From positions 27,657-91,656 of the forward strand of contig CAYWNT010000005.1 in NCBI GenBank assembly GCA_964459725.1: DNA of 64,000 bases, written 5' to 3'. The position numbers and the translations under genes are program-made. Shown piece after piece: positions 28,121 through 63,437 of the stretch (position 1 is its first letter; every line of letters begins with the position of its first letter). The notes under the pieces were generated by a model. The model was not told the DNA's origin. It saw nothing but the letters and a program-made list of their open reading frames with translations, and did not search any database. The DNA comes from an uncultured Gammaproteobacteria bacterium (lineage in GTDB: Bacteria > Patescibacteriota > Patescibacteriia > Patescibacteriales > UBA12075).

Positions 28121-29293
28121 CTACTTAAGACCGTGGCAAGTCTTAAATACCTCACATTTTCTACAATTGCCAATTTTACTGGCAGCCGCTCCTTGTATTT
28201 TTCCACCACAAAATGTTCCATCCTTTACCCAGCACTTATGACCATCATCAGGATAAGCTGGACAAACGCCAAACTCAGCTACATTGACGCCTCCCTTTTG
28301 GCGACCGCATTTTTTCACTTCCCAACAATTAGGCAAATTGATATTATTCCGCTGTCCAAAAATTTGTAAATAAAGTTGCAAAACAAAATCAGTTGTCGTA
28401 GAAGCTTGCTTTCCTATGTCAGCTGCTATAGCAGCCAATTGATCAGATCGGTCGACATTGGCCTGAGTTACTCCGCCAAGACTGGAAATTACCTGACTTA
28501 CTTCTCCTATACTGATTGATTGCTCATTTGTGGCATTGGCGATTTCATCAACCAAATTCATTACTTCCATCTGGTCATTTTTCACATTCTCAAAAACCGA
28601 CTCTGTGTCAACTACTATACCAAATGATTCTTCTATTCCATTCGTGATGCCTTCAATTGAAACCGAAGTCTCTTTTGCAGCTTCTGTCGCACGCAAAGCC
28701 AAATTTCTCACCTCATCTGCCACAACAGAAAATCCCATACCTGCTTTTCCTGCTCGGGCAGCCTCTACCGCAGCGTTTAAAGCAAGCAGATTTGTCTGAA
28801 AGGCTATCCCGTCAATTATCTTTACAATTTTGCTTGCTTCTTCACTAACCCTCCTGATGTCCGTCATTTTATTTTTCACTCCGGTTGTTAAGTCAGAAGC
28901 ATTGGTAATCATGTTGCTAAAATCTCTCACCAAAATATTCATCTCTTTGGAGTTTTCAGCATTCTTCTTAGTAGTCGAGGAAGTTTCCTCCAGAGATACC
29001 GAGCTCTCCTCCAAGGCTACCGCCTGAGATGAAGTATCCCTGGCCAATGACTTACTGGCTGACAACATATTCTGAGACGTAACATCAAACTCTCCTGCTC
29101 TATCGACTAAGGCATCGACAACCACACTAAGCTTTCCAACAATGCCCCGAGACAAAAGCTCTGATACTCCAATCGCCACCAAAACTGCTAACAACGCAGC
29201 ATAAGGCAAAGGCAAAAACTCATTAACAACAAAAACAATCAAACCGCAAAGAAAAAAACAAACATATATTTTTTTACGTATCCCAAACTTCAT
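28121..29293 (-). CDS. Methyl-accepting chemotaxis protein signalling domain with C-terminal Cys-rich (two-CW-like) domain
   Basis: 2 TM; [37 protein letters not shown]; C-terminus [42 protein letters not shown]. Confidence 0.85.
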
Positions 29294-29569
29294 TATCTCC
29301 TCCTTATGTCTCCCCTTACAGTTGGCAAGGTAAATTTGTTAATGCAAAGTCATAAAAATCAAAAGAACAAATAATATCTTAACCATTCTTTGAAAAGCAA
29401 AAATATAACTAAATAATTACGTACAGCTTATCTTATTATTTCGTATTTTGCAAATTTGTTTGGCTATTTTAAAGAGTCTCTTTAAAAATTATTATTCAAG
29501 CGCATCTAAAAGTCATTAAATACTTTTATATCTTAATATTTTTATTTTGTTTATTGCCTATCCAGCCCC

Positions 29570-29597
29570 TTGATTTTTTATATTTTTCCGCTATACT
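29570..29597 (+). promoter_or_regulatory. Sigma70-type promoter upstream of RT non-coding region
   Basis: TTGATT (29570-75) - 16 nt - TATACT (29592-97). Confidence 0.5.
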
Positions 29598-29603
29598 AGT
29601 AGC

Positions 29604-29801
29604 AAGGCTGCCTTTTTACTGCCTTTTGTGTTTTTTGCAAAGGGTAAAAAAAGGGTCATCTGTGATCGGATGGCTCATTCATTGTAAACTGCAACTTCTG
29701 CCAAGTCCTGCACAATCGATTTATGCTGTAACTACGCAGGCTCTGACAAACGCTGTTGGCAGTTTCACAATCCTGAGACTTTGAAATCGTCGTAGCACCT
29801 T
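29604..29801 (+). ncRNA. Candidate retron msr/msd-like structured non-coding RNA (boundaries uncertain)
   Basis: G+C-richer than flanks by eye; hairpins 29653-29676 and 29698-29762; possible end pairing 29604-11 with 29795-801; directly upstream of a retron-type RT. Confidence 0.4.
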
Positions 29802-29969
29802 ATTTTATTATTATTATGATGATTATTAAAAAGTTTCACAACTTAAGTTTTCTGGGATGTTTTATGATCAAAATTATCTAATAAAATTGCCCAAGAAGAC
29901 TGCAACCGCTCTTTCAGGTGGGAGAACTTGAACTTTTCCTATTTACGAGCGGGAGGAGCCTTAACTTGT

Positions 29970-30004
29970 GGGAGGTGTGTTTTATCCACCTCCCTCTTTC
30001 TTTT
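29970..30004 (+). terminator. Terminator/attenuator-like hairpin 25 nt upstream of RT start
   Basis: GGGAGGTG (29970-77) / CACCTCCC (29987-94), 9-nt loop, then TCTTTCTTTT. Confidence 0.5.
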
Positions 30005-30028
30005 ACAACTAAATACGAGGAGGAAGAA

Positions 30029-31066
30029 ATGGTCAGTGAAGATATTCTTCAGAAATACTACTACATTTTTAAAGAATATTTCTCTGTTCCTCCCGCATAT
30101 TTTGACGGACTCTACTATACAATTTGTTCTAAAGAAGAATTGTATAGAAAAAGTAGAGAGCCCAAAAAAAACGGAGGATTCAGAGAAATACACGCACCCT
30201 GCGAAGCATTAAAATTGATCCAAAGAAAATTGCATAAGTATTTTAGTACAATTGAAATTGATGATAATCTTTTTGCCTACAGAGAAGGTGGGTCACCGAT
30301 AAAAAATGCAATTAGCCACGTAAAGGACAACAAGGGGCCGGAGTGGATGCTGAAAATGGATTTGAAAAATGCATTTCCTTCTGTAGACGCCCCCCTGCTT
30401 CAGATTGTACTACGAGCAATTCTCATTGAGAACGATAAGCTCCAAGAAGAGTTTGATTCATTTATTGGATTTGATCGCAATTTTGACGAATTTATTAAAA
30501 TTCTCATCTCTCTTGTAACTCACAACGAACGTCTAACCCAGGGAGCTCCATCATCCCCATCCTTGCTCAATCTTTCCTTGACCTATCTTGGTATAATTTC
30601 CGAGATAAAATCATTGTGCCAAAAACACGGTGTTAATTTTTCTGTCTACTCTGATGATTTTGTCTTTACATCAAATACAAAAATTTCAAAAAATTTCAGA
30701 AAAGACATTACAGTGATAATAGAGGGAATGGGATTTTTTGAAGTAAACCCAGAAAAAACCATGCTGAGCAATTTCCGTCATAGAGCGCATAAAATAACCG
30801 GAGTAGTTCTCACAGTAAATCCAATTGGAAATATAAGATTCACCCTTCCTCAAAAAACAATAAAAACTTACAGGGGAAAAATCAACAGGGTAATTAAGAT
30901 GTTGTCTGAGGGGAAATACCCAACCAAAAAAGAAGACGGAATATCAGTCAACGAAATCAAAGGAGAAATTAACTGGCTGCGAAGTGTCTGCGGAGATAAT
31001 CTTCCTTCAGCCGTAAGAAAACTTGTTTTCAAATTCGAAAACATACTACGGGACACAAGTCCTTAA
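30029..31066 (+). CDS. Retron-type reverse transcriptase (RT domain only, 345 aa)
   Basis: GAGGAGG SD 5 nt before ATG 30029; GGFREIHAP, NAISH (NAxxH), MDLKNAFPSV, LTQGAPSSPSLLNL, YSDDFVF, HKITGVVL motifs in canonical order. Confidence 0.85.
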   Translation: MVSEDILQKYYYIFKEYFSVPPAYFDGLYYTICSKEELYRKSREPKKNGGFREIHAPCEALKLIQRKLHKYFSTIEIDDNLFAYREGGSPIKNAISHVKDNKGPEWMLKMDLKNAFPSVDAPLLQIVLRAILIENDKLQEEFDSFIGFDRNFDEFIKILISLVTHNERLTQGAPSSPSLLNLSLTYLGIISEIKSLCQKHGVNFSVYSDDFVFTSNTKISKNFRKDITVIIEGMGFFEVNPEKTMLSNFRHRAHKITGVVLTVNPIGNIRFTLPQKTIKTYRGKINRVIKMLSEGKYPTKKEDGISVNEIKGEINWLRSVCGDNLPSAVRKLVFKFENILRDTSP

Positions 31067-31090
31067 ACTAATTAAAACTTCACATTCATA

Positions 31091-31123
31091 CCCAATCGCA
31101 ATTACGCGGTTGGGTATTTTTTT
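31091..31123 (+). terminator. Rho-independent terminator of RT gene
   Basis: CCCAATCGC-AATTAC-GCGGTTGGG then TATTTTTTT. Confidence 0.75.
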
Positions 31124-31132
31124 ATAAAAAAA

Positions 31133-31175
31133 CAGGGTTAATCATGTTTCACTTGTGTGAAAATGATTAACCCTG
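31133..31175 (-). terminator. Long hairpin terminator of the convergent 60-aa ORF
   Basis: CAGGGTTAATCATGTTTCAC-TTGT-GTGAAAATGATTAACCCTG (about 19 bp, one bulge); U-tract on minus strand at 31121-31132. Confidence 0.7.
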
Positions 31176-31209
31176 GCTTGGCTCAGCAAATGCTTATTCT
31201 CCGAATAGT

Positions 31210-31392
31210 TTAAGCAATAGCTGTTGCGCCGGTCGCCTCAAGGGGGACAAAAGATTCACCGTAACATGGCTCGACAGGAATCACCTGGGCAGCATCATCG
31301 GCTGTATCATGGCAGAGTACCTTACATTCATCGGTAGGATTGGCTTTCAGTCGGCGGCGGTGATCATGTTTTCTTCCAGTTGGAACGGTCAT
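31210..31392 (-). CDS. G+C-rich small ORF (60 aa, hypothetical)
   Basis: AGGAGG SD 7 nt before ATG; MTVPTGRKHDHRRRLKANPTDECKVLCHDTADDAAQVIPVEPCYGESFVPLEATGATAIA; own promoter candidate TTGACT-16-TAAAAT (31523-31496, minus strand) and terminator. Confidence 0.55.
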   Translation of the reverse strand: MTVPTGRKHDHRRRLKANPTDECKVLCHDTADDAAQVIPVEPCYGESFVPLEATGATAIA

Positions 31393-31689
31393 GGCAATAC
31401 CTCCTAGGCATTTTTTGCGCTCTTATGCTATCCAAGTGCATAGATGCGCTTCTCCAATTGTTCAGAGCTTAGCTCTGAAAACCTTATTTAATTATATTTT
31501 AACAAATTCTTAATTTAAGTCAAGAAAAAATAAAAAAAATTTAAATTAATAATAAATTCTTTATTATTAGCGAATATTCTCACATTTAATTCAAACAAAA
31601 AATAACAACACTTGCCTTATCTCCAACTTTTTAAAACTTTTCCACAGCCAAAGATTACCCAAAAATTTCGTAGGTCTCTTGCTTTATTT

Positions 31690-31733
31690 AATTAATAGTA
31701 CTTTTAATAGTACTATTAAAAGTACTATTAATT
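31690..31733. promoter_or_regulatory. Perfect 44-bp palindrome with three AGTACT cores (candidate operator)
   Basis: Checked base by base: 31690-31733 is self-complementary; AGTACT at 31697, 31709, 31721 (12-bp spacing); 116 nt upstream of the HD-domain gene. Confidence 0.6.
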
Positions 31734-31848: not shown

Positions 31849-32736
31849 ATGAATAAAAATCAACTCGAAAAAAAATTATATAAAATTGCAGAGTCTCTTA
31901 GTGCGAAAGACAAGAAAATCTTATTAAAAGCCTATGAGCTTGCCGAAAAAGTTCATAAACACCAAAAAAGAAAATCCGGCGCCCCTTTTATTGTCCACCC
32001 ACTAGCAGTAGCCATTAATCTTTGGGAACAATTTAAAGATGTAGATCTTACTATAGCAGGACTCCTCCACGACACCATTGAGGATGGAGGGAAAGCTTAT
32101 GAAAAGGAAATATACGAAAACTTTGGAAAAGAAATCGGCTTCATGGTTGACGCCCTAAACAAAAGATCGAAAGGATTTTATAAAAAAAGAAAGAAATTTA
32201 CAGATAGGACAAAGAGGTTTTTATGGGCCGGCCTTCAGAACCCCTACATATTTCTATTAAAAATTGCTGACAGAGAACAAAATTTATTAGACGTTGAAAA
32301 CCTCCCCTCTAACAAACAAGTGAGGATCTCATTTGAAACTCAGGCCATCTATGAACCACTAAGAAAAATTCTGAATTATGAAGAATGCAATGATACTAAT
32401 ATAGTTAAATTGAAAAAAGATTTAAACAAATTTATCAAATCTCATAACCTAAAAGACATTAAAGCTCTAAAAAATTATTTAATAAGCGAATACTACAAAG
32501 GATTCACCACGGAAACATTTAACGAGGTATATAAAAATTCAGATAAAATAATTTGGGAAACAAATGATATGGATGAGTTTGCCAAGCTATGTAAAAATAA
32601 ACAATTTGATGAAAGTGTGACAATTGTATCTATGCAAAGCGAAGAATCAAAAAGATCAGTCTTATTTCACTTTAAACTAGCACATGTTGGAGATAAAAAA
32701 ATCAAAGAATTAAAAATAAAATCATTTAAATCATAA
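31849..32736 (+). CDS. HD-domain (p)ppGpp hydrolase-like protein (RelA/SpoT hydrolase domain, SAH-like) with unknown C-terminal extension
   Basis: HKHQKRKSGAPFIVHPLAVA..AGLLHDTIEDG..FLLKIADREQNL..ETQAIYEPL follows the RSH hydrolase-domain pattern. Confidence 0.75.
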   Translation: MNKNQLEKKLYKIAESLSAKDKKILLKAYELAEKVHKHQKRKSGAPFIVHPLAVAINLWEQFKDVDLTIAGLLHDTIEDGGKAYEKEIYENFGKEIGFMVDALNKRSKGFYKKRKKFTDRTKRFLWAGLQNPYIFLLKIADREQNLLDVENLPSNKQVRISFETQAIYEPLRKILNYEECNDTNIVKLKKDLNKFIKSHNLKDIKALKNYLISEYYKGFTTETFNEVYKNSDKIIWETNDMDEFAKLCKNKQFDESVTIVSMQSEESKRSVLFHFKLAHVGDKKIKELKIKSFKS

Positions 32737-45722: not shown

Positions 45723-45834
45723 GGGGAGCCATTCAAAAAAGGCTTCCCGTACTGGTTAATACCCTTTCGGGTATCAGCTCACACAAGCAAAAACCAGACA
45801 GAAAGCCGTCTCTGTCCTTGTGTGAGTCTTTTTA
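45723..45834 (+). ncRNA. Candidate plus-strand structured small RNA ending in a terminator
   Basis: Three consecutive hairpins (45723-48, 45759-74, 45778-826) then TCTTTTT; the first stem has a G-U pair only on the plus-strand reading. Confidence 0.35.
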
Positions 45835-46007
45835 ACCATGCCTTAAGCTAATAAGGTTTAGGTTGCTCAATTAAATTGTAACTTAAAAATAACATAAATA
45901 GCAATAAAAATCAATATTTTATTGCAAATTTAATTATACTAAACGGCTTCAACATAGTTTATCATATTGTACATAAAATTTTCCTCAAGAAATTCTAAAG
46001 TTTTTAT

Positions 46008-47988: not shown

Positions 47989-48216
47989 TTAATGTTTAAT
48001 TATCAAATAAATAATATTAGCAATATTGCCAACTCCCATAAAACCTAAAAACCATTTAAGATTCCTAATAGTCGTTGCTACCTCAATTCTAAATTGAGTA
48101 TTCTTCTTAACATTGCCATTAGTCTCATCTAATCTCTTGATAATTCCTTTATGCCCAGTAGAATTGTCATCTTTTAGATCCTTGATTTTATCAAGAATCA
48201 AATCCAGCTTATCCAT
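47989..48216 (-). CDS. Holin-like or lysis-associated small membrane protein
   Basis: 75 aa, single C-terminal TM, adjacent to endolysin. Confidence 0.45.
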   Translation of the reverse strand: MDKLDLILDKIKDLKDDNSTGHKGIIKRLDETNGNVKKNTQFRIEVATTIRNLKWFLGFMGVGNIANIIYLIIKH

Positions 48217-48217
48217 A

Positions 48218-48382
48218 TTACTTATTGTCTAAATACTTTTTATAAAACCCACGACCAATAAAGACAGCAACACCTATTAAAAGCAAAACAGTGCCTTGCC
48301 AAATATTGCTCTGTATAACTGCTACGCCAGTACTCACAAATATAGTGGCCACTGACAATAAAAGTTCTTTTGTGTAATCCAT
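48218..48382 (-). CDS. Holin-like small membrane protein (2 TM)
   Basis: From MDYTKELLLSVATIFVSTGVAVIQ..LLLIGVAVFIGRGFYKKYLDNK; two TMs plus a charged tail. Confidence 0.5.
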   Translation of the reverse strand: MDYTKELLLSVATIFVSTGVAVIQSNIWQGTVLLLIGVAVFIGRGFYKKYLDNK

Positions 48383-48399
48383 AAATATAAAAATTAATT

Positions 48400-50148
48400 T
48401 TAAAAATAATTCCAATTAACCTCTTTGACGTTAATCTCATTTGTATTATTTGATTTACCTTTCAATTTTACGCAACCAACTAGCCTAACCCCTGCATCCT
48501 GATTATTCATCGCTTTAATTGTCTTGCTATATGATAAATACCAGATATCATCTCCCAAATCTTCAATTGACTGCAACATCATATCCTGTAAATTTTCATC
48601 ATCTCCCACTGGTTCAAGACTTATTAATCCATATGCATCAATCCTTATTAATTGAGCGTTTGTTGAATATGTATTCTGCAATTCTTCTGTCACCGTTAAT
48701 GTGTTACTAACAATACCTTGCACCTCAACTAATTTCATTTTTTCATCTTCCAATAATATTGCTCTATCTCCCACCTCAAAATCACTTGCATCTGTAAGCT
48801 CAATATCTGCTTGTCCTGAATTTGCAATTGAAGCTAAATTAATTTTGATAACAGCCTTTTGCTTAAAATATCCGTTTACTGTAATCGTTTCATTTAGTAC
48901 CTTAAGCTCTTTTGTAAAATACCAACCATATTTTGCATACTTTCTTTCATTGCTGTACCCCGAATAAAATCCGGGGCTTGTAGTGCCTACAACTTTACCT
49001 GCCTCAATTCTAATTCTTCCATTTCCTCCATTCCCACCATTGCCATAACTATCATTTGTGCCACTACTATTTATTCCCAAGCCTCTAGTTCCACCCCTAG
49101 CATGAATATATCCTGTACCAATATCAGCCTTGTTTAAAACCTGAATAAATATAGTCCCACCTGATCCTCCTCCGCCTCCAGCAGAATAATAACTCCCCGG
49201 ATGAGTATTTTCATCTCCACCATCTAATCCGTCATTGCCATCACAGTCAATCTCGCCATTAACAACCATATTTTTACAATGCAATCTGATTATTCCTCCT
49301 CCATGTCCTCCATGACCCCAGCCTGGCATTTGATAGTTCGAACCTCCACCGCCACCGCCTGAACCTCTTAAATATTCAATAGAAAAAGTATTTGATAGAC
49401 TTTCGTTATTATAAACTTCACCACCATATCCATAATCTCCTCCATACTTATTACTTCTACCTCCCGCACTCCCATATCCTCCTCCCCCACCTCCACTTCT
49501 ATAGCTTGACGAGCCTGAACCATCTCCGCCTCCACCGCCTCCGCCATTTGCTTCATTTGCCCTATCTCCCGATCCTATATAACTACTGCCTTGATATCCC
49601 CATGGATCACCACTACTTCCTCTGCTATGACCTCTGCCTTTTGCTGAAATTATTCCCCCGGCTTCAATTTCAATATTTCCTTGGCATTTAATTTGGATGT
49701 TACCGCTTATATAAATTGTATGTCCTGCTTGAATTAATATTGAAGTAAAGTTTTTCTCGCTTGACCATGTTGTATTTCCAGTACTGACAAAAGCTCCATC
49801 TGATCCATCTCCCAAATCAGGAGCCAGCAATCTTGTAAATTTATTATTTAAAGTATCCAAATAACCCAAGTACTTGCCGATTGACGATCCTTCAGGATAA
49901 GAATTACTTAAATTATCTTTCATAGTTAAAGTGTTACCGACAATACTATCAATCACAGCTGTTTCAAATCCATTCATATTGTCATACACTACAACCTGAT
50001 CTCCTATCTTAAATTCTGATGCATCACCAACTACAATATTTCTTTGGCTAGCAATCGCCTCGCTATCAATATAAGTTATCCGCTCATCAACATATTCATT
50101 GCTGGTCATATCATCTTGTGTTATTCCTGTTAGTTTTAATTTTGGCAT
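48400..50148 (-). CDS. Glycine-rich tail fibre/spike-like protein
   Basis: 582 aa; central GGGGGGDGSGSS.. / GGGGGSGGT.. runs; duplicated terminal domains; position between baseplate-like genes and lysis genes. Confidence 0.6.
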   Translation of the reverse strand: MPKLKLTGITQDDMTSNEYVDERITYIDSEAIASQRNIVVGDASEFKIGDQVVVYDNMNGFETAVIDSIVGNTLTMKDNLSNSYPEGSSIGKYLGYLDTLNNKFTRLLAPDLGDGSDGAFVSTGNTTWSSEKNFTSILIQAGHTIYISGNIQIKCQGNIEIEAGGIISAKGRGHSRGSSGDPWGYQGSSYIGSGDRANEANGGGGGGGDGSGSSSYRSGGGGGGYGSAGGRSNKYGGDYGYGGEVYNNESLSNTFSIEYLRGSGGGGGGSNYQMPGWGHGGHGGGIIRLHCKNMVVNGEIDCDGNDGLDGGDENTHPGSYYSAGGGGGSGGTIFIQVLNKADIGTGYIHARGGTRGLGINSSGTNDSYGNGGNGGNGRIRIEAGKVVGTTSPGFYSGYSNERKYAKYGWYFTKELKVLNETITVNGYFKQKAVIKINLASIANSGQADIELTDASDFEVGDRAILLEDEKMKLVEVQGIVSNTLTVTEELQNTYSTNAQLIRIDAYGLISLEPVGDDENLQDMMLQSIEDLGDDIWYLSYSKTIKAMNNQDAGVRLVGCVKLKGKSNNTNEINVKEVNWNYF

Positions 50149-50154
50149 ACATTT

Positions 50155-50607
50155 TTATCTATAATAATAAGCAGTTACGCTGAAATTTCTATATGTGTTA
50201 TTCCAGCTAGACCCACATGACTGTGTGCATGTTAAAACATCTCCAGAAATTGAGCTTGCCACCCGACTCCAATAACTATCGCTATCAACTCCAGGCTGTT
50301 GTTTTAGGGTTTGACTCGTAATTCCTTCTCTTGCCAACATCACCTGTCCATTCCAATTCCAACCGCTAACTGAATGAGATATTCTTAAAACAATAAAATT
50401 GCAATCTGGCGGAATTGTGCCTGTGTCTGTGCATGGCGTAGAATAATTTGACTGACTGTCACTTAATCCTTCAGAACTTATAAACTCCCAATGAGCTGAT
50501 CTGTTCAAAGAAATAATATTTTGTGCCAAAGCTCTCAATGCTTTCATTATATTATTTATTTCAAACGCAAATAATTTATTTTGTCCTTGTTTTTTGTCTA
50601 AACTCAT
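50155..50607 (-). CDS. Hypothetical phage structural protein
   Basis: 150 aa, S/W/C-rich; tail-module position. Confidence 0.45.
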   Translation of the reverse strand: MSLDKKQGQNKLFAFEINNIMKALRALAQNIISLNRSAHWEFISSEGLSDSQSNYSTPCTDTGTIPPDCNFIVLRISHSVSGWNWNGQVMLAREGITSQTLKQQPGVDSDSYWSRVASSISGDVLTCTQSCGSSWNNTYRNFSVTAYYYR

Positions 50608-50794
50608 AACTTCTATATTTTGATATATTCTTTTTATTGTTTTTCAAAAATAATGCTGGCTTGTTTTTTTTATCAAAAATTTCTTTCTTGCCTTTGAATT
50701 CTGCTTCCTTTATTTCGTGCTGTAAACCAAGTCTGCTGACAATATCATATGCCTCTATTTTGTTTTTAACCTCAATTTTTATTTTTAACATCAT
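50576..50794 (-). CDS. Small hypothetical phage protein
   Basis: 72 aa basic protein; start preceded by repeat hairpin 1. Confidence 0.4.
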   Translation of the reverse strand: MMLKIKIEVKNKIEAYDIVSRLGLQHEIKEAEFKGKKEIFDKKNKPALFLKNNKKNISKYRSYEFRQKTRTK

Positions 50795-50802
50795 ATTTAA
50801 AA

Positions 50803-50832
50803 CTTGCCCGCCGTAGCTTTAGCGTAGGAGGG
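50803..50832 (-). promoter_or_regulatory. Phage intercistronic stem-loop repeat, copy 1
   Basis: Minus strand CCCTCC-TAC-GCTAAAGCT-AC-GGCGGG-CAAG; starts right after the upstream stop, 8 nt before the next ATG. Confidence 0.6.
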
Positions 50833-51399
50833 TCATACGCTTACAAATGTATATTTTTGGCTTATAACTAAAACTGTATTATTATCCTTAACCCAATTAA
50901 TTCCTGTAATATGCGACCAAAGATTGCCTGTGTCTGGGTCTTCATCACCGTCAATAACATTTCCAAATTCTGTATATGTTCCTGCACATTCTGTTTCTGT
51001 AAAAAATGCAGTCAATAAAACAACATTTTCATCATCAGTGCCACTGGCCATGTCATTCCTATAAACTTCATTTATCAATGTTGTATCACCGTCACTTGCA
51101 ATACCACTCCCATCACCCAGCAATGCTTTATTGATATATCCTGTATAAGTAGTATCACCGACCAATCTTTTTATTAGAGCATTAAAACCAGTTCTGCAAA
51201 TCACATTAAATCTTCTGTTTTCCTGCACTAAATCACCTAAAATATAGTATTTCATTATTTTTGGAAATAACGGACGTAAATTACGCAAAATTTTATTAAA
51301 AGCAATTTCACTCTTTGTTAATTTTGATTGATCGTAAAACTTAGCCGTGATATCTCCGACTGCATGTGCATTTTCTTTTGTATGTTTTTTTATAATCAT
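50833..51399 (-). CDS. Hypothetical phage structural protein (distant paralogue of 63438..63851)
   Basis: Start at MIIKKHTKEN, 8 nt after GGAGGA of repeat copy 2; LLGDGSGIASDGDTTLINE.. pattern. Confidence 0.5.
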   Translation of the reverse strand: MIIKKHTKENAHAVGDITAKFYDQSKLTKSEIAFNKILRNLRPLFPKIMKYYILGDLVQENRRFNVICRTGFNALIKRLVGDTTYTGYINKALLGDGSGIASDGDTTLINEVYRNDMASGTDDENVVLLTAFFTETECAGTYTEFGNVIDGDEDPDTGNLWSHITGINWVKDNNTVLVISQKYTFVSV

Positions 51400-51403
51400 A
51401 TTG

Positions 51404-51434
51404 CTTGTCCTCCATAGCTTTATGCGCAGGAGGG
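51404..51434 (-). promoter_or_regulatory. Phage intercistronic stem-loop repeat, copy 2
   Basis: Minus strand CCCTCC-TGC-GCATAAAGCT-AT-GGAGGA-CAAG, then CAAT-ATG. Confidence 0.6.
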
Positions 51435-52934
51435 TTAACTTAACTCGCTTGTATCTAAACAAAATTCTCTCTCGGGGTCTGTGTGACCTGTTGGAATATA
51501 AGGTGCTAAAACAAATATTGGTCTAACTCCTGCCCCAAATGGGTCTTTTTCAATTGACTCTGTCACCTCAACTGTTTTATAATCTTCCATTTCTTCAACC
51601 AAACCAATCTCCTCATCAACCTGAACATCTTGATAATCAAGGTAATATTTTTTTAAAACAGCGTTCTCATTTAAAGTGACTTTTTTATTTTCTCCCACCA
51701 GTAAACTCTGCAAAAAGCTGATCATTCCTAAAGTTTTAAGTGTGGCTAATTCAACCGTCCATTCTCCCTCTGTTGCAGTAAACATTTTTAAACTAACTCG
51801 CATTATCAAAAAATTTTCATTTATACTCCTTGCTGATAAATTTATACTTATAGTCTGCCCCGAACTCAATCCACTTAAATATGTTCTAAATCCTCCCTCT
51901 CTTATAGTATTTGCATAAGCTGATAGTTGTGCCTCACCGTACTGTTTAGCCTCATTAGTGGTCTTGATACTCTTATCAATTTTTTTAAACTCAAATCGTC
52001 CATATTTTGAAATACTGGCATTATCTTCTACTTGAGCCATAATCGGGATAAGATAATATCCGCTAATCTCAATTACATCACCACTTACTGGCGGAACTAC
52101 AAATCTGACATATTTCTCGTTATAACTCCAAAGACAATCATAATCATCATCGCTGTTTAAAAACTCCGTTCCCACGCTCACCTCAACACTGTTCACCTTT
52201 ACAGTCGGCTTTTTAGAAAATTTATAATCTGTAGCAAAACTCTTTTGATTGCCATCACCAGTATGCGGTTTTGTTCTTTCATTGTCTGATGTTATCTCAC
52301 CGCCCTCAATTATTACTACATTCCTAAGCTGGCTTAAATCATTATCTATACTTAAACTGTCCCTGATATAATTATCACTGCCGTCTGCAATATTAAATGA
52401 TGCTGGCTCATCATTTTTAGAAAAAAAATGAATATCATGATCATAATCGATATACCAACTATAATTAAATAACTCACAAAGCTCTGTTAAACATTTACTA
52501 ACGCTCAAATTATTAAATGCCACTACTGTCACCTCTAAGCTACAATTCACATTGTTATAAGTAATGCCTGTACCTGCCAAATAATTTGTGACCAAAAACT
52601 CAATAATCTCATTAACTGTTTTATTCTCAAATCTTTCAATGACCAATATTCTGTCCAAATCCAAAGTATAATCCTTGGTTTCAATTTCATAATAAACAAC
52701 ATCTCCTTCGGCATAATTACCAACTCTTATAATCTTGCCTGCAAATACCTTCTCCGCTCCGTCAAACACTTCAACTATGTCACTAATCTCAGGTTTATAG
52801 CCTTGCCCTTCAAAAACTTTGATTGTAAAATTGCATAAATTTGGTTGTTCGTTAATATTGTCTTCAATATTGAAACTATCCCAATCAACTAAATTCGTTT
52901 TTTCTTCATTGTTTATTTTTAAAATAATATTCAT
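51435..52934 (-). CDS. Distal tail / tail-family protein (tentative)
   Basis: 499 aa immediately downstream of the tape measure gene. Confidence 0.5.
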   Translation of the reverse strand: MNIILKINNEEKTNLVDWDSFNIEDNINEQPNLCNFTIKVFEGQGYKPEISDIVEVFDGAEKVFAGKIIRVGNYAEGDVVYYEIETKDYTLDLDRILVIERFENKTVNEIIEFLVTNYLAGTGITYNNVNCSLEVTVVAFNNLSVSKCLTELCELFNYSWYIDYDHDIHFFSKNDEPASFNIADGSDNYIRDSLSIDNDLSQLRNVVIIEGGEITSDNERTKPHTGDGNQKSFATDYKFSKKPTVKVNSVEVSVGTEFLNSDDDYDCLWSYNEKYVRFVVPPVSGDVIEISGYYLIPIMAQVEDNASISKYGRFEFKKIDKSIKTTNEAKQYGEAQLSAYANTIREGGFRTYLSGLSSGQTISINLSARSINENFLIMRVSLKMFTATEGEWTVELATLKTLGMISFLQSLLVGENKKVTLNENAVLKKYYLDYQDVQVDEEIGLVEEMEDYKTVEVTESIEKDPFGAGVRPIFVLAPYIPTGHTDPEREFCLDTSELS

Positions 52935-52953
52935 ACTTGTCCTTTGAAGCTTT

Positions 52954-52995
52954 CTTGCCCGCCATAGCTTTAGCGACGGCGGGAGCGTAAGAGGG
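52954..52995 (-). promoter_or_regulatory. Phage intercistronic stem-loop repeat, copy 3 (composite)
   Basis: Minus strand TAG-CCCTCTTACGCT-CCCGCC-GTC-GCTAAAGCT-AT-GGCGGG-CAAG; then AAAGCTTCAAAGGACAAGT-ATG. Confidence 0.6.
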
Positions 52996-54660
52996 CTAAC
53001 CTAGCAAATTACTTGTCTTTAACTTTCTAATCATTAAATCTCCGATCCTCTCTGCACCTTTTCTGTCCATTATTGTATTGCCTGTAATATTTATATTGAT
53101 CACATTACCTCTTCCACCTAATCTGCTATTAGGAATTATGTTGCCACTACTGCCAGGCACAAACAATTCGGGTCCCTGCTCACCAACAATATATGCTTTA
53201 GTCGGACTAACAAATCCGCCACTTGCTCTTCCTCCGCCAAATCCCAAAGCGTTGCCAATCGCATTTTTTGCCCCTTGTACTACATTCAATTTTTTTATTC
53301 TCTCTATCAATTTATCAATCCAACCAACAACCTTTGAAATTGTGCTGGTGGTTGCATCCCAAATCCCCTTAAACTTCTCAATACCAGCATTCGCTACTTC
53401 AATAATCTTCGTTAAAGTTTGGATTAACACAATTAAACTGACTTCAATTATTTTAACTACCGCTATTAACGCTCCCAACAAAATAACTCCAATAACTTGG
53501 GCGAAAACTTCTAAAAATGGCTTAAGCGGTTCTAGTGCCTCCCATAGCTTTTGCAATTCAGGTAGTAAATTTTCTTTAAATACTAATGCAATATTTTCCC
53601 ATGATGTCTTGAATATAACTAGCAATCCCTTATATCTATCTACAATATCGATTCCTTTCTTTACAATATCTATAAAACTTTTAGAAATATCAATAACTGT
53701 CTTAATTGCAATTTTTAATGCCTCAAACGCAGTCAATAAAACTTGTCCAATAATATCAGCTGTTGCTTTTAATTGCGGATTGATCTCATTTTCTTCTGTA
53801 AATGCCCACGCTTTAAAACTCTTAATCGATTTATAGACATATTCAATCATCGGTTTCATGGCATTATCAAGCATCTCTCCTAAAATAAGTTTTAAACTCA
53901 CTATTCCGTCTTTTACTGAATTAGACATTTTATACCAACTTCCCATTGCCTCTGTATACGATCCCTCCATTCTGGTTGCCTCGCCAATTATAGCGTTGTA
54001 CATGGCTTGTGTTTTTTGAGCATATGTAAGTTCACTGGTTTTAATTCCCAACTGCTCTGATGCATCTTTATAAACCTTTACCAAATTCATCTCAATTCCA
54101 TATTCGCTTAAAAGTTCCGGGCGAAGTTTAACTACCGCTTGCATCATGGCTTTAATGGCATCATTGGAGTTCTTATTTGAGGCGGCGGCTACATCTCTAC
54201 CTCTGGCTACAATTTCCAAAGCCTGCGACTCACTCATATTGGTCATGATTGCTGTTTTTGTGAGTTCAATCGATGTTAACATATCCTTGTTTTCGTCCCT
54301 GATGCTTTTCACCAAACTATCAATTTGTTTTTTCGACCAATTATTGTTTTCACCTAGCTTATAAATAACAGCTTTTGATTGCCCCAGCTGACCAGTTAAA
54401 TTAATACTATCCTTAATGAGTCCTGATAAACCACTGGCAAGTTTACTGACAGTACCGACAATCGCACCGTATGCTAAATTACCAACTGTCACAGCCTTGG
54501 CCATGGCACCAAAAGAACTGGATGTGTTTTTTGCATCCCCTGAAATACCATTCAATGCTTTACTGACTTTTTTCATCTCTGAACTAGCATTGTCAACAGC
54601 TTTTAATATAATTTGTAGTTCTTTATTATCTGCCATTTTGTTTTTTATTTTTTTCGGCAA
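52996..54660 (-). CDS. Tail tape measure protein
   Basis: 554 aa helical A/I/K-rich protein with hydrophobic segment ..GVILLGALIAVVKIIEVSLIVLIQ..; follows the frameshifting chaperone; TTG start (ATG alternative 54636). Confidence 0.75.
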   Translation of the reverse strand: MPKKIKNKMADNKELQIILKAVDNASSEMKKVSKALNGISGDAKNTSSSFGAMAKAVTVGNLAYGAIVGTVSKLASGLSGLIKDSINLTGQLGQSKAVIYKLGENNNWSKKQIDSLVKSIRDENKDMLTSIELTKTAIMTNMSESQALEIVARGRDVAAASNKNSNDAIKAMMQAVVKLRPELLSEYGIEMNLVKVYKDASEQLGIKTSELTYAQKTQAMYNAIIGEATRMEGSYTEAMGSWYKMSNSVKDGIVSLKLILGEMLDNAMKPMIEYVYKSIKSFKAWAFTEENEINPQLKATADIIGQVLLTAFEALKIAIKTVIDISKSFIDIVKKGIDIVDRYKGLLVIFKTSWENIALVFKENLLPELQKLWEALEPLKPFLEVFAQVIGVILLGALIAVVKIIEVSLIVLIQTLTKIIEVANAGIEKFKGIWDATTSTISKVVGWIDKLIERIKKLNVVQGAKNAIGNALGFGGGRASGGFVSPTKAYIVGEQGPELFVPGSSGNIIPNSRLGGRGNVININITGNTIMDRKGAERIGDLMIRKLKTSNLLG

Positions 54661-54826
54661 TGTAAATTAATACCTCATTTATAAACTCCCACCTTTGAAT
54701 CCTGAATTCTTCTTCTGTCCAGCCAAGCTCCGCACAAAAAAACGCTCTTATTGCTTTGAAACTTGGATCGCCAAACCGCACGAATCTGCCTATTTCGTAT
54801 TTTGCGGATTGGCTTTGGCTAAAAAA
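54626..54826 (-). other. -1 frame extension of tail assembly chaperone (G/GT-type programmed frameshift)
   Basis: Slippery T_TTT_TTA at 54826-54820 (minus strand); the -1 frame stays open for 65 codons (SQSQSAKYEIGRFVRFGDPSFKAIRAFFCAELGWTEEEFRIQRWEFINEVLIYIAEKNKKQNGR) to TAA 54628-26. Confidence 0.55.
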
Positions 54827-55107
54827 TCTTTTACAAAATTAAGATTTTCCTGAATAAACTTAATATCATCAATGCAAAGCAAATTGACATTATCGATATT
54901 CACAGGCAATATTTGCTCGTTTTCATCAGTTGCGTCCCAATCTTCAATAATCCTAGTTAGCATGACTAACACCTGCTTAATATCGCTGTCTTCCTTTTCT
55001 ATTTCTTCAATATCATTAGCTAGCACTCCGTCTCTGACTTTTACTGTAATTCCACTTTTTGGCAGTTTGATGTTTTTAACATCTCTTATATCTTTAAGTA
55101 TTGGCAT
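54790..55107 (-). CDS. Tail assembly chaperone (gpG-like)
   Basis: 105 aa acidic protein between major tail and tape measure genes, with downstream -1 extension. Confidence 0.6.
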   Translation of the reverse strand: MPILKDIRDVKNIKLPKSGITVKVRDGVLANDIEEIEKEDSDIKQVLVMLTRIIEDWDATDENEQILPVNIDNVNLLCIDDIKFIQENLNFVKDFLAKANPQNTK

Positions 55108-55111
55108 ATGA

Positions 55112-56083
55112 TTAATAGCTTGCTTGCTCGTTAGTTAATACCGCAACAATGCTCCTTGCATCACTGCTTGAATAAAATGCCTTAAAGCCGACCGTTACTT
55201 TGGCAATTTCGTTATTGTCTCCGCCAATCAATGGTTCTCTAAATTTGATTTTAGCCAAATCAATAACCAATTTAGGATTTGATGTTAAGCCAATGGTAAT
55301 TCCTGAATTTACAATCTCCAATCTCATGGCTTTTTTATTTCCGTTCAAGGCATAATCCATTAAATCTGTATTCTTAAAAAGCATTTCAATATTACCCTCA
55401 ATAGATAGCTGTTTATTAAGAAAATCATTCGGCTCAATACTGCCTAATTTCTCATCATCCTCAACATTTTTATTAACTTCTATCTCTACACTTCGAACAT
55501 CAATCGCACTTGCACCACCTAGTTCAGATAAGTCATCAGCCAGTTTCACATTAATATCTTTGCCTAAAAAATAATTTTCAGTCACATAAGCTGGAACATT
55601 GCTAGCTGATACACCTGCTTTGCCTCGAAGTACCGCCTCAAACTTCAAATAATCCTTGGCGACAGCATTTAATTTAAATGACTCAATTACTGAATTGGGG
55701 TATGCCTTTTGCTCGTTATCTCCTCTTTTTACCTCGACTGTTACTGTCGGATGTTTGGCGGATTGCAAAACCTCAAAATTATGATCATAAACACCTGCAT
55801 CAGCTGATTCTGCTGATGTTACACTACCTAGTGTGGTCAGTAAGAAGAGTCCAAAACTCTTGTCAAAAACTTCTCCTCCAATAGTGCCTCCGCTCATTTT
55901 TTTACTAACCTCCTGATCCTCACTATCTTCAATTACGCCCACAGCACGTTCTGAAACAGCCACCTCAATTTTATCGTTAATGTCTTCAGATAATGGCTTT
56001 AACCAAAACGCAGGGGCAACGACTGTCCCTCTTGTTGATTCTAAGCCGATGCCAATATTAAATTTTCTTTTTAATGTTTCCAT
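55112..56083 (-). CDS. Major tail protein (by position)
   Basis: 323 aa, directly upstream of the chaperone pair. Confidence 0.55.
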   Translation of the reverse strand: METLKRKFNIGIGLESTRGTVVAPAFWLKPLSEDINDKIEVAVSERAVGVIEDSEDQEVSKKMSGGTIGGEVFDKSFGLFLLTTLGSVTSAESADAGVYDHNFEVLQSAKHPTVTVEVKRGDNEQKAYPNSVIESFKLNAVAKDYLKFEAVLRGKAGVSASNVPAYVTENYFLGKDINVKLADDLSELGGASAIDVRSVEIEVNKNVEDDEKLGSIEPNDFLNKQLSIEGNIEMLFKNTDLMDYALNGNKKAMRLEIVNSGITIGLTSNPKLVIDLAKIKFREPLIGGDNNEIAKVTVGFKAFYSSSDARSIVAVLTNEQASY

Positions 56084-56088
56084 ATGTT

Positions 56089-56325
56089 TTATTCTTTATT
56101 TAGTTTTTTAAATTTCTCATCAGCCTCCTCCTTTGATTTGGCTTTGATTGTGACTTGGCCAGGATAATTGTATTCCACCTGACCGTCTGAATTCTTAGGA
56201 CGGTCATCTTTATTTTCAACTTGACCGTCTGCACCCTTAGGACGCTTTTTATTAGATTCCTCCTGACCGTCTGAACGATTAGGACGGATACTTTTGTCTT
56301 CAACTTGTGTTTTTTTTATTGACAT
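56089..56325 (-). CDS. Small repeat-containing phage protein
   Basis: 78 aa with 3 tandem ~14-aa units RPNRSDGQEESNKK / RPKGADGQVENKDD / RPKNSDGQVEYNYP. Confidence 0.45.
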   Translation of the reverse strand: MSIKKTQVEDKSIRPNRSDGQEESNKKRPKGADGQVENKDDRPKNSDGQVEYNYPGQVTIKAKSKEEADEKFKKLNKE

Positions 56326-56332
56326 AATGGTT

Positions 56333-56743
56333 TTATATTAATTGTTTTAATTTAACGCATATTATCTCCATTTCCAGCACACGCATTAACAACTCTCTGT
56401 CTTCCCAAACAAAACTGCTTGAAACCTGCACATCATCGCATAAACCGCCTAAAGTGTCGTCATTATCAAATAAATCATCAATTATATCCGATAGATTAAC
56501 AAGCAAATTTTCTCCGTCTGATTGCCCCCTAGCATTCTCATTCACCTCCTGAATTACCTGAACTTTAAACTTATAAAACTTCTTTATTGTTTTGACACTT
56601 TCCCTGATTTTTTCGTTTTCACTGCCTAAAATTATTGCTACTGGAAATTTATTAAAATGACCTTTGTTATATTTATAAACCTCCTTAATTTCCTCAACAG
56701 TTTTTAATTTATTATAAATTGCATTTAAAATATTATTCCTCAT
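56333..56743 (-). CDS. Tail terminator/completion-like protein (by position)
   Basis: 136 aa; between gp10-like and tail genes. Confidence 0.4.
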   Translation of the reverse strand: MRNNILNAIYNKLKTVEEIKEVYKYNKGHFNKFPVAIILGSENEKIRESVKTIKKFYKFKVQVIQEVNENARGQSDGENLLVNLSDIIDDLFDNDDTLGGLCDDVQVSSSFVWEDRELLMRVLEMEIICVKLKQLI

Positions 56744-57201
56744 ATTCTTTTGATTATTTTTTCCAAAACATCTACAAAGATTTTTCTCACTTTTTTATTT
56801 GTCATGTTTACAGTCCTATCAACAAATGGATTAGCTTTTGTCCCTTTCCTCATGATTGATTTTTGCAATGCATATGGATTAATGCCTTTTTTAATTGCCC
56901 ATATTCTAAGCGGTGACCTTGGACTGCTAACTGAAACATAATGCGGTCTAGTTCCCTCATGCACTGGAATCGCATATTTTTTCTTTGGAACAATCATCAC
57001 ACTATTGGCTGTTAATCTCATGCCTATACTTTGCCTTAAATGATTTGTAACGCCAATTGGCACCTGTCTTTTTTCAGTACTTACAATCAACTTACCTGAT
57101 TTTAAAAGTCCTTTGCTTATTTCCTGATTAGCAATAACTGGGTACATTCTGAATACCTCCCTAATCTCGTCTAAATTTTCAATTTTTACTTCAAATGGCA
57201 T
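56740..57201 (-). CDS. HK97 gp10-like tail-completion protein (tentative)
   Basis: 153 aa; position and size; preceded by repeat copy 4. Confidence 0.45.
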   Translation of the reverse strand: MPFEVKIENLDEIREVFRMYPVIANQEISKGLLKSGKLIVSTEKRQVPIGVTNHLRQSIGMRLTANSVMIVPKKKYAIPVHEGTRPHYVSVSSPRSPLRIWAIKKGINPYALQKSIMRKGTKANPFVDRTVNMTNKKVRKIFVDVLEKIIKRI

Positions 57202-57203
57202 AT

Positions 57204-57236
57204 CTTGATCCCGCTAAGCTTTAGCTTTTTGCGGGG
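57204..57236 (-). promoter_or_regulatory. Phage intercistronic stem-loop repeat, copy 4
   Basis: Minus strand CCCCGC-AAAAA-GCTAAAGCTT-A-GCGGGA-TCAAG-AT-ATG. Confidence 0.6.
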
Positions 57237-57545
57237 TTAATTATTCGGTTTGATTATTATTGCCTCAATTCTTGATAATGATCTGTATTCTAATTTTTTT
57301 AAATTTTTAACTATAAATGTTTCTCCCTCACTTTCAATTTTGTCCGCCTCTTTTATATCTGAATAAATATCTGCATATAGTTTATGCATCTCTGCTGGAT
57401 TGCCCTCGCTTATCATTAAATCTTCGGCTTTTATCGGCATAATGACTCCATAAACATCATTAATCCTTTTGTACTCTTCTGTTTTCTTTTCAGTATCGCT
57501 AACCAGCCTATAAACCATTATTCTTTTTTCAAACGCAAATCTCAT
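57237..57545 (-). CDS. Head-tail adaptor / head closure protein (tentative)
   Basis: 102 aa; 4-nt overlap with the connector gene; typical size and order. Confidence 0.5.
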   Translation of the reverse strand: MRFAFEKRIMVYRLVSDTEKKTEEYKRINDVYGVIMPIKAEDLMISEGNPAEMHKLYADIYSDIKEADKIESEGETFIVKNLKKLEYRSLSRIEAIIIKPNN

Positions 57546-58081
57546 ATATTGAATTTCTTATATTTGCCCAAAATGGATGCTATATCAGGCGACAAATGAT
57601 TCTCCCAAGTAACTTGCGACTCTCCCAAATTCTCCATTTTAATGCCGTCACTCTTTCTTTTATTCCATAGCCTGCCTACGATTTTTAATATTGCTAATTT
57701 TAAATCTTCAGGGATATTTTTATTTGTATAACCAGTTTTATATTTTGCTCTATAATTCCTTTCACCCAATCTCACATAATCCAGTTTAACTACTCCCTCA
57801 TCACTATAAAATTTATAACTTGTGTCAGACACTTCTTGCCAAACATCTTCCTGCTCATTCTCAATTATTAAATTTTGTAATTTTAGATTGTACGTCAAAA
57901 ATATCTCGTCATCGATATCATCACCGTCAAAATACTCCTCGATGTCCGATTCCTCAATTTTGTTGTTTATCATACACTCTGCCCACTTAACAGCACCATT
58001 AATAAGCATAGTGATCGTATCATCAAAATCATTTGTGTTTAAACTGATATATGTTTTAAAATCTTCTGTGTTTATAATCAT
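57542..58081 (-). CDS. Head-tail connector (gp6-like)
   Basis: N-terminus ..DFKTYISLNTNDFDDTITMLINGAVKWAECMINNKI resembles the gp6-like connector pattern. Confidence 0.55.
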   Translation of the reverse strand: MIINTEDFKTYISLNTNDFDDTITMLINGAVKWAECMINNKIEESDIEEYFDGDDIDDEIFLTYNLKLQNLIIENEQEDVWQEVSDTSYKFYSDEGVVKLDYVRLGERNYRAKYKTGYTNKNIPEDLKLAILKIVGRLWNKRKSDGIKMENLGESQVTWENHLSPDIASILGKYKKFNI

Positions 58082-58100
58082 AAATTTAAAGCTCTTATTA

Positions 58101-58124
58101 CTGACCCTTTTTAGCTCGGGTCAG
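58101..58124 (-). promoter_or_regulatory. Variant intercistronic stem-loop (GCTAAA loop)
   Basis: Minus strand CTGACCC-GAGCTAAAAA-GGGTCAG, 19 nt before the connector ATG. Confidence 0.45.
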
Positions 58125-58136
58125 AACATAAAAGCT

Positions 58137-58343
58137 CTAGGCTTTCTCGCAAAATTTTGCTTTGATCAGTTTTTCAGCTTCTTCCGTATCAAGCCCAGCT
58201 ACATCACCCTTTACATAAGGAGTATGGCTTTTTAAAAATTTTACTCGGACAAGTTTTGATTTCTTTTTCTTGTCTTTTTTTTCTTCGGCTGAATTATTAT
58301 TTTTGTTTTCATCAGCCTGATTGTTTTTGTTGTCGTTTGCCAT
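58137..58343 (-). CDS. Small basic phage protein (hypothetical)
   Basis: 68 aa N/K-rich, between capsid and connector. Confidence 0.45.
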   Translation of the reverse strand: MANDNKNNQADENKNNNSAEEKKDKKKKSKLVRVKFLKSHTPYVKGDVAGLDTEEAEKLIKAKFCEKA

Positions 58344-58380
58344 AAAATTATCGCTTAATTATTAGTTAACTAATTACTTT

Positions 58381-58417
58381 CTCCCTCCCTACTAGAAATC
58401 CCCATGCAGGGAGGGAG
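58381..58417 (-). other. Strong GC hairpin after major capsid gene
   Basis: CTCCCTCCCT-17 nt-AGGGAGGGAG perfect 10-bp stem, 20 nt after the capsid stop; no U-tract. Confidence 0.6.
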
Positions 58418-58436
58418 TATAGCAATAAGCTAAACT

Positions 58437-59495: not shown

Positions 59496-59511
59496 ATGTT
59501 AATGTTTTTAG

Positions 59512-60282: not shown

Positions 60283-60302
60283 ATATTTTGATTGATTATT
60301 AT

Positions 60303-62360: not shown

Positions 62361-62370
62361 ACTGTTTTTG

Positions 62371-62401
62371 CTTGTCCGCCGGAGCTTTAGCCTAGGCGAG
62401 G
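62371..62401 (-). promoter_or_regulatory. Phage intercistronic stem-loop repeat, copy 5
   Basis: Minus strand CCTCGCC-TAG-GCTAAAGCT-CC-GGCGGA-CAAG, 10 nt before the portal ATG; the upstream gene's stop TAA lies inside the GCTAAAGC loop. Confidence 0.6.
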
Positions 62402-62719
62402 TAAATCACTTTTTGCTTTTATAATCATGTCTCCATAAGTTATTACTTGACCGTCTTCAAAAGTAACTTCAATTTCTGCGTAATATTTACCAGCCTCATC
62501 AAAATCACCGTCCTTGACCGTATATTTGACCTCTCCTGCACTGCTATCAACCACTTCCATATCACCTGCAAACTTTAAACTCTCCTCCCCGGGAATCTGT
62601 ACTTTAAAAGATATGCTTGACACTGTGTTCAAATTAACCACATCTCCGTTGTAGTCAGTTAAGGCAAATGATAAATCATACCCCTTGTCGTCTTTTGTAA
62701 TATCAATTAATGTCCTCAT
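62387..62719 (-). CDS. Ig-like phage structural protein (BppU-N-like, tentative)
   Basis: 110 aa; ..YDLSFALTDYNGDVVNLNTVSSISFKV..GEVKYTV..GKYYAEIEV pattern. Confidence 0.45.
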   Translation of the reverse strand: MRTLIDITKDDKGYDLSFALTDYNGDVVNLNTVSSISFKVQIPGEESLKFAGDMEVVDSSAGEVKYTVKDGDFDEAGKYYAEIEVTFEDGQVITYGDMIIKAKSDLPRLG

Positions 62720-63435: not shown

Positions 63436-63437
63436 AT

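Follow-up and report, generated by a model that had tools for sequence, protein, structure and literature searches.

A candidate stand-alone retron-like lineage with a previously undescribed family of structured RNA

A stretch of 64,000 nucleotides (nt) from an uncultured bacterium, deposited under Gammaproteobacteria and placed by GTDB in the Patescibacteriota (contig CAYWNT010000005.1, positions 27,657 to 91,656; hereafter the window, to which positions refer unless a relative is named), encodes a reverse transcriptase (RT) of retron type downstream of a 735-nt intergenic gap. Comparison of this gap with its counterparts in related loci establishes, at the level of sequence, a unit that runs from promoter to terminator, has the geometry of a retron non-coding RNA (ncRNA) and stands beside the RT gene. 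The segment at 29604–29962 on the plus strand, approximately 360 nt in length, is probably the msr/msd-type ncRNA of a stand-alone retron-like cassette. Judged by its sequences, this cassette represents an undescribed and rare stand-alone retron-like lineage with a new family of structured RNA, for which we infer the synthesis of multicopy single-stranded DNA (msDNA), as well as a function. An earlier reading of the letters of the window (the sequence-only reading) had proposed that a promoter drives a structured non-coding RNA here and that this RNA is the partner of a retron-type RT, and the promoter, the fold and the relatives described below bear this proposal out.

The RT gene (30029–31066, plus strand) encodes 345 amino acids with a Pfam RVT_1 domain; its most plausible start is the ATG at 30029, 5 nt behind the Shine–Dalgarno sequence GAGGAGG (30017–30023). 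The protein carries the motifs of retron RTs, namely NAISH (NAxxH) at residues 93–97, YSDD (YxDD) at 207–210 and ITG (VTG-like) at 256–258; H97, D209, D210 and G258 are invariant across 38 members of the clade to which it belongs. Every top match in PADLOC was a retron RT model, the best being RT_III-A (139 bits), with II-A, VI, XI, XII and XIII close behind and RT_Ec107-like at 107 bits. The best NCBIfam model was retron St85, at 138.6 bits and thus below its cutoff of 235, and Drt2 reached 36 bits against a cutoff of 390. When a profile of the clade was compared with PDB sequences, the retron RTs Ec67, Ec86, Kva2, Ec78 and Ec83 matched at around 1e-35 and group II intron RTs at around 1e-21. 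An AlphaFold2 model of the window RT (predicted local distance difference test score of 95) has no extra domain, and its best 17 Foldseek matches were retron RTs (top structures 9n69, 9kjx, 7v9x and 9i2f), with DRT9 and DRT2 at ranks 42–43. All 38 clade members gave similarly moderate PADLOC scores to II-A, III-A, VI, XI, XII and XIII, and the clade therefore belongs to none of those types. By sequence and by predicted structure the enzyme is of retron type, yet it falls in no typed retron family. One relative, L232, has a longer RT (2466–4055 in L232, minus strand; 529 amino acids). It contains internal insertions and ends in a C-terminal stretch of around 110 amino acids without a Pfam match, which, from its sequence, could represent a domain fused to the RT in one sub-branch.

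Relatives of this RT are distant. A word-indexed protein search returned only identical copies, which add no variation, and relatives of at most 30% identity. When 1.84 billion cluster representatives were searched exhaustively with phmmer, a distinct clade emerged of about 40 proteins with E < 1e-30, 31–43% identical to the window RT and mostly 340–430 amino acids in length; some of its members carry the labels Patescibacteria, Candidatus Buchananbacteria or Candidatus Vogelbacteria. A scan of genome contigs with an alignment of the RT, whose pattern was generic to retron RTs, yielded only relatives of at most 33% identity; this set was reused as a negative set for the hairpin described below. 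Our comparison covers 15 loci: the window, 11 fetched loci of the clade and 3 loci from a DNA-motif scan of metagenomes, the RTs of the 14 relatives being about 30–43% identical to that of the window. Among the matches listed in that scan (at least 120), 3 were true loci, each with an RT of the clade just downstream on the same strand. The independent retrieval of three loci by the RNA motif, each with a clade RT on its 3′ side, supports the pairing of this RNA with this RT. A scan of viral contigs with the hairpin motif gave 101 matches, about the number estimated for chance, and none of these lay beside an RT.

The 15 loci are organized alike: a promoter is followed by an arm and a G, then by the conserved hairpin, a second G and a second arm, and lastly by a terminator and a Shine–Dalgarno sequence. 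In the window, the 5′ arm AAGGCU (29604–29609; a2-like) pairs with the 3′ arm AGCCUU (29957–29962; a1-like), both on the plus strand, in minimum free energy (MFE) folds, and the pairing covaries across the loci. Directly behind the 5′ arm lies G29610, which is bulged in the window fold, is a G in 14 of the 15 loci and is a candidate branching residue; the opposing G29956, immediately 5′ of the 3′ arm, is a G in every locus. Mestre et al. 2020 (PMC7736814) described retron ncRNAs as closed by a1 and a2 with ‘two opposing G residues’ and as containing both msr hairpins and one long stem, the msd; the window has both the terminal inverted repeats and the G beside a2 with its opposing G beside a1. 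By analogy with that biology (PMC7736814), G29610 would serve as the priming residue. In the window only, the fold extends the closing stem past the bulged G by pairing CCUU (29611–29614) with GAGG (29953–29956).

Geometry is kept while the letters of the arms change. The pairs read AAGGCU/AGCCUU in the window, GUGGCU/AGCCAC in L083, CGCGGUU/AACCGCG in L085, AGUGACU/AGUCACU in L086, ACGAACU/AGUUCGU in both L188 and L191, ACGUACC/GGUACGU in L190, GUGGGCA/UGCCCAC in L315 and AAGUGGCU/AGCCACUU in L232. The stem is 6–10 base pairs (bp) long, with a 13-bp version in L211, and the end of the 3′ arm lies approximately 60–95 nt from the RT start. These results locate the closing stem differently from the sequence-only reading, which had paired AAGGCUGC with GCACCUU at 29795–29801. 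The 5′ arm at 29604 stood; the partner did not, the MFE fold and the comparison both placing it at 29957–29962. That reading had also set the branching G in a UAGC-like context within GUAGCA boxes. Such boxes exist in the window, as a 6-mer at chance level that was not seen on reading the upstream regions of the relatives, and the comparison points instead to G29610 and the opposing G29956. Direct repeats that it had listed, two copies each of AGTTTCACAA and ACTGCAAC, are likewise present, as short two-copy matches for which the relatives were not searched; a role for them is not supported. A further repeat, CUGCCUUUU, occurs twice, 11 nt apart, at 29608–29627; its first copy holds G29610 and its second is the 5′ arm of hairpin 1.

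Several measures argue that this structure is maintained. The plus strand of 29604–29962 folds far more stably than its shuffles (z = −6.58; 0 of 100 shuffles as stable), compared with z = −2.29 for the minus strand. In an anchored mini-alignment of the 15 loci, 90.4% of 271 cells pair, versus 25–40% when partners are slid by 1–3 columns; as the stems were anchored by eye on complementarity, the pairing signal of the closing stem is partly circular. Compensatory changes were found in 13 of the 19 pairs, and seven pairs of the closing stem show 3–5 pair types across the loci; none of 500 shuffles reached any of the observed pairing measures. Less biased checks come from untrimmed MFE folds, which begin 30 nt 5′ of the arm, extend as far as the RT start and recover the closing stem in 10 of 15 loci, and from the position of the promoter (see below). 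The first fold of the window, of 29590–30028, had given the closing stem before any comparison. RNAalifold agrees for the conserved hairpin; in full-length MAFFT/RNAalifold alignments this hairpin alone was aligned and the other domains were not alignable.

That hairpin, GGGUCAUCUG-UGAU-CGGAUGGCUC at 29653–29676 (plus strand), is the sole element of the RNA family that is conserved in sequence, with the consensus GGUCRYCUG-N3-4-CGGRYGGCU, and is predicted independently by RNAalifold. In 14 loci all 10 of its pairs form without exception; 4 of the pairs carry compensatory changes, and U-A, C-G and G-C pairs exchange at its base. L190 has only a shortened look-alike. A regular expression for the hairpin has a single match in the window and none in 784 kilobases (kb) around 80 other retron RTs, and the hairpin is therefore specific to this clade. 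It is a probable recognition element for the RT. The sequence-only reading had picked out the same hairpin, which is present in the MFE fold, within a segment that it took to be richer in G+C than its surroundings; the content is indeed 0.40–0.48 in the RNA segment and 0.20–0.27 in the flanks.

Around the conserved hairpin, size and sequence vary freely. Hairpin 1 (29620–29646, plus strand) is of variable sequence in the MFE fold, and a hairpin of unrelated sequence occupies its place in L083–L086, L196, L211 and L317, where the conserved hairpin lies near the 5′ end. On the 3′ side, a variable domain (29681–29952, plus strand) is predicted to form four stems at approximately 29681–29770, 29774–29836, 29844–29902 and 29907–29952, the first region including the CUGCCAA...UUGGCAG stem (29698–29762) that had been seen by eye. 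The 3′ part of this domain is a candidate msd, that is, the template. Every relative differs in the size and sequence of the domain: the part behind the hairpin spans 59–396 nt and the entire ncRNA 142–492 nt. Rfam 15 gave no match in 29294–30028 at E ≤ 5; in the ncRNA regions of relatives it gave none in 14 at the gathering score and none in 5 at E ≤ 1. The ncRNA has no match of at least 16 nt at 100% identity in the rest of the window. A target of the type used by diversity-generating retroelements, or cargo matching phages, was also considered and rejected: there was no match in the window or in 50,697 phage records, and the RT does not resemble those of diversity-generating retroelements.

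Transcription of the RNA would start from a sigma-70-type promoter, TTGATT-16-TATACT (29570–29597, plus strand; 9 of 12 positions matching), with a predicted start at around 29604. By sequence alone the promoter is unremarkable, as 21 such sites were found and 14.3 expected; its position, by contrast, is kept, with a match of at least 9 of 12 and a −10 element ending 5–9 nt before the 5′ arm in 10 of 14 related loci, compared with 1.4% of random anchors. The promoter was already part of the sequence-only reading and gains weight from this conserved placement. The RNA gene lies beside the RT gene on the same strand, as it does in 14 relatives.

Between the two lies an intrinsic-terminator-like hairpin, GGGAGGUG/CACCUCCC, with the tail CUCUUUCUUUU (29970–30004, plus strand). 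Its 8 bp are 100% complementary and form in the MFE fold, and, as expected of an intrinsic terminator, a G+C-rich hairpin is followed by a U tract; it separates the ncRNA from the RT gene, which begins 25 nt further on. Equivalent hairpins with a pyrimidine or U tract follow the 3′ arm by 3–15 nt in all 15 loci. The hairpin of the window escaped a simple terminator scan, probably on account of its 9-nt loop, the scan having a limit of 8. The promoter scan found no promoter-like site between 29772 and 30028, and transcription of the RT must therefore pass the terminator-like hairpin, as the sequence-only reading had supposed for transcripts from the upstream promoter; co-transcription of RNA and RT through the terminator is our resulting interpretation. 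These hairpins are strand-asymmetric in all 15 loci, with a G-rich purine run (GGGAGG-like) in the 5′ arm and CCUCCC followed by a U/C tract on the 3′ side. MFE folds of the window, L085, L191 and L317 pair the pyrimidine tail with the Shine–Dalgarno sequence of the RT, a predicted pairing that may add a layer of translational control.

The gap that holds the RNA lies between a minus-strand MCP gene (28121–29293) and the plus-strand RT gene. On the 3′ side of the RT gene are two terminator hairpins (31088–31117 and approximately 31134–31173), and beyond them an island of 50% G+C (31180–31480) in an AT-rich genome, an HD_4 gene and a methyltransferase gene. Neighbours of the cassette differ from locus to locus: MCP, HD_4 and methyltransferase genes in the window, and in the relatives dnaX, IF2, DUF2207, an ABC transporter, HIT, an SMC-like protein and an LTD-domain protein. 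Across the nine gene neighbourhoods with flanking genes that were compared, we found no conserved effector or small open reading frame (ORF) near the RT, and nothing downstream of the RT was common to the relatives. The window locus has neither the accessory effector nor the fused effector domain of typed, tripartite retrons. In three relatives, tRNA genes lie within approximately 0.1–1.2 kb of the cassette (L188, 4837–4908; L312, 5342–5413; L318, 57–138; all minus strand), which may hint at integration sites, in an inconsistent pattern.

Taken as a stand-alone retron-like cassette, the locus suggests the following mechanism. Most transcripts would stop at the terminator and supply an excess of free ncRNA, and those that read through would serve as the RT mRNA. 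The RT would bind the conserved hairpin and the closing stem, prime complementary DNA (cDNA) synthesis from the 2′-OH of G29610 and copy the RNA leftwards from around 29955, leaving a branched msDNA as the product. Candidate outputs are defence together with a partner acting in trans, or a role for the RT–RNA–DNA complex that needs no effector.

Several observations weigh against this interpretation. L196 has no G right after the arm and the stem of L318 has one mismatch; 5 of the 15 untrimmed folds missed the closing stem, and the anchoring by eye bears on its pairing signal as described above. The part behind the hairpin in the window, 280 nt with four stems, is unlike the single long msd stem-loop of classical retrons, and the conserved hairpin is placed differently among loci, in some close to the 5′ end and in some close to the 3′ end, which leaves the msr and msd boundaries undefined. 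To our knowledge, no described retron has an intrinsic terminator between msd and RT. Finally, without an effector gene the model of a retron defence system stays incomplete.

This last point gives some appeal to a different chemistry, in which the RNA is partner and template of the RT but cDNA synthesis is protein-primed, template-jumping or rolling-circle, as in DRT2 and DRT9, and the cDNA is the effector; we consider this unlikely. A cDNA that acts by itself would explain the absent effector gene, and the layout, an RT and an ncRNA with no conserved neighbour, would suit such a system, as would a closing stem that joins both ends of the loop and a 10-nt direct repeat, 71 nt apart, in the window. 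This repeat, however, is a single short two-copy match, for which the relatives were not searched. Nine of the 15 loci, against an expected 5, have a loop between the two G residues whose length is divisible by 3, a weak and unexplained excess that is possibly due to chance; it does not come with an open frame. In the window and in L211, each of the six frames of the loop is interrupted by stops, and no frame on either strand is consistently open across loci, which also answers the suggestion in the sequence-only reading that concatemeric cDNA might yield a continuous ORF of the DRT2 type. Moreover, the RT is of retron type and not UG2 or UG28, with Drt2 at 36 bits against the required 390 and the DRT2 and DRT9 structures at rank 42 or lower, and the arm-G...G-arm geometry is the signature of a retron.

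It is improbable that the structured region is never reverse transcribed and works solely as a cis-regulatory leader of the RT mRNA, through transcription attenuation or translational control. Such a role would account for the terminator between promoter and RT gene in all 15 loci, for the resemblance of the G-rich 5′ arm and the CCUCCC with its pyrimidine tail to a Shine–Dalgarno and anti-Shine–Dalgarno pair, and for the predicted pairing of the tail with the RT Shine–Dalgarno sequence in four of the folds (window, L085, L191 and L317). A leader, however, needs neither a covarying long-range stem with two conserved G residues nor a conserved hairpin amid 140–490 nt of freely varying sequence, and the use of a neighbouring template RNA is established for RTs of the retron family (PMC7736814). 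Roles as leader and as template are, in any case, not mutually exclusive. The sequence-only reading had named the G+C-rich unit at 31.1–31.5 kb as a possible template, which would make the upstream RNA unrelated to the RT; an island of 50% G+C directly 3′ of the RT gene in an AT-rich genome is suggestive, but the idea is very improbable, because the unit folds no better than shuffles (z = −0.96 and −0.45 on the two strands), holds an orphan 60-amino-acid ORF with its own promoter and Shine–Dalgarno sequence on the opposite strand, and is separated from the RT gene by two terminators, with nothing 3′ of the RT conserved among relatives. Most remote of all is a small protein encoded in the gap by the plus-strand frame that is stop-free for 103 codons (29473–29781), or by the ORF at 29554–29784. 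The frame is open, as had been traced by hand, but it has no ATG or Shine–Dalgarno sequence and runs across both the promoter and the RNA; conservation tracks base pairing and not codons, and the stability of the RNA is strand-specific. Gene calling left the corresponding gap empty in every relative, in keeping with the earlier view that the gap holds no convincing coding sequence. We therefore favour the msr/msd-type ncRNA of a stand-alone retron-like cassette.

The current view of retrons is that of three-part toxin–antitoxin-like defence systems, and they also serve as tools for genome editing. An RT–ncRNA core that shows covariation, with no effector gene in nine neighbourhoods, reopens the question of what stand-alone retrons do. 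A tentative and rather doubtful extension is that the RT and its ncRNA function alone in an effector-less lineage that is possibly enriched in Patescibacteria and the candidate phyla radiation (CPR). The variable domain would be exchangeable cargo, and the DNA made by the RT, or the RT–RNA–DNA complex, would act without a protein toxin in defence, sensing or housekeeping, as a retron counterpart of DRT2 and DRT9. If the Patescibacteria and CPR labels hold, the genomes that carry the cassette have scant space for non-essential genes. The size range of the internal domain, approximately 60 to 400 nt, would point to long donor inserts being tolerated, should this domain be the template. The terminator that separates ncRNA from RT suggests an inherent means of setting the RNA:RT ratio. 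A covariance model of the RNA family could find further members.

Other features of the window lie outside the cassette. The HD_4 gene (31849–32736) is SpoT-hydrolase-like, and around 115 nt 5′ of it is a perfect 44-bp palindrome (31690–31733) of 22 + 22 nt without a spacer, made of three 12-nt units centred on AGTACT, with the look of an operator. The 60-amino-acid ORF in the G+C-rich island (31210–31392, minus strand) has an AGGAGG Shine–Dalgarno sequence and a flagged promoter, TTGACT-16-TAAAAT (31523–31496), with TG before the −10 element; it has no homologue, its sole match among 5.8 billion proteins being itself. A LOOT RNA (Rfam RF03000) lies at 45745–45864 (minus strand; 56.7 bits against a gathering score of 46.4). 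Prophage-like genes occupy approximately 48000–64000, including an HK97-type portal (60303–62360, minus strand) and an LIC12611-family phage tail protein (52996–54660, minus strand), and there is a weak AgmC-like match at 48400–50148. As to the host, a CysRS cluster representative at least 90% identical to the CysRS of the window bears the label ‘Patescibacteria group bacterium’. This assignment is tentative, since MCP, HDOD and histidine-kinase proteins, that is, chemotaxis and two-component functions not expected of a CPR genome, are also encoded in the window.

Within the collection of papers searched, nothing relevant turned up on retrons in CPR or Patescibacteria, and a 2026 survey of retrons in SPIRE metagenomes does not mention Patescibacteria (10.64898/2026.05.14.725207). 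With DRT2 (UG2) and DRT9 (UG28), the window cassette shares the combination of an RT and a neighbouring structured ncRNA only (PMC12039810, PMC12483538); it differs in that its RT is not of the UG/Abi class and its RNA has no stop-free template frame, and the RNA has the a1/a2–G geometry of retrons and not the pseudoknot scaffold of DRT2. Like the typed retrons Ec86 (II-A), Eco11 (III-A3) and Ec78/Ec83 (I-A), it has the RT fold and motifs, the closing stem with an adjacent G and inner hairpins; unlike them, it has no fused or adjacent effector, and its ncRNA, at 142–492 nt across loci, is variable in architecture. Stand-alone (msr-msd)-RT cassettes whose function is unknown have been described in the Retron-Eco5/Ec107 branch of clade 2 and in part of clade 11 (PMC7736814). 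The cassette resembles these in its retron RT with NAxxH and VTG-like motifs, in its upstream ncRNA on the same strand with a1/a2 arms and opposing G residues, and in having no specific effector. It differs from them in belonging to another RT clade (RT_Ec107-like, 107 bits), in its other ncRNA, which has no Rfam match, in the large variable domains that flank the conserved hairpin and in the conserved terminator between ncRNA and RT. Whereas the Ec107 and clade 11 branches are found mostly in Gammaproteobacteria and Actinobacteria, several members of the lineage described here are labelled Patescibacteria or CPR.

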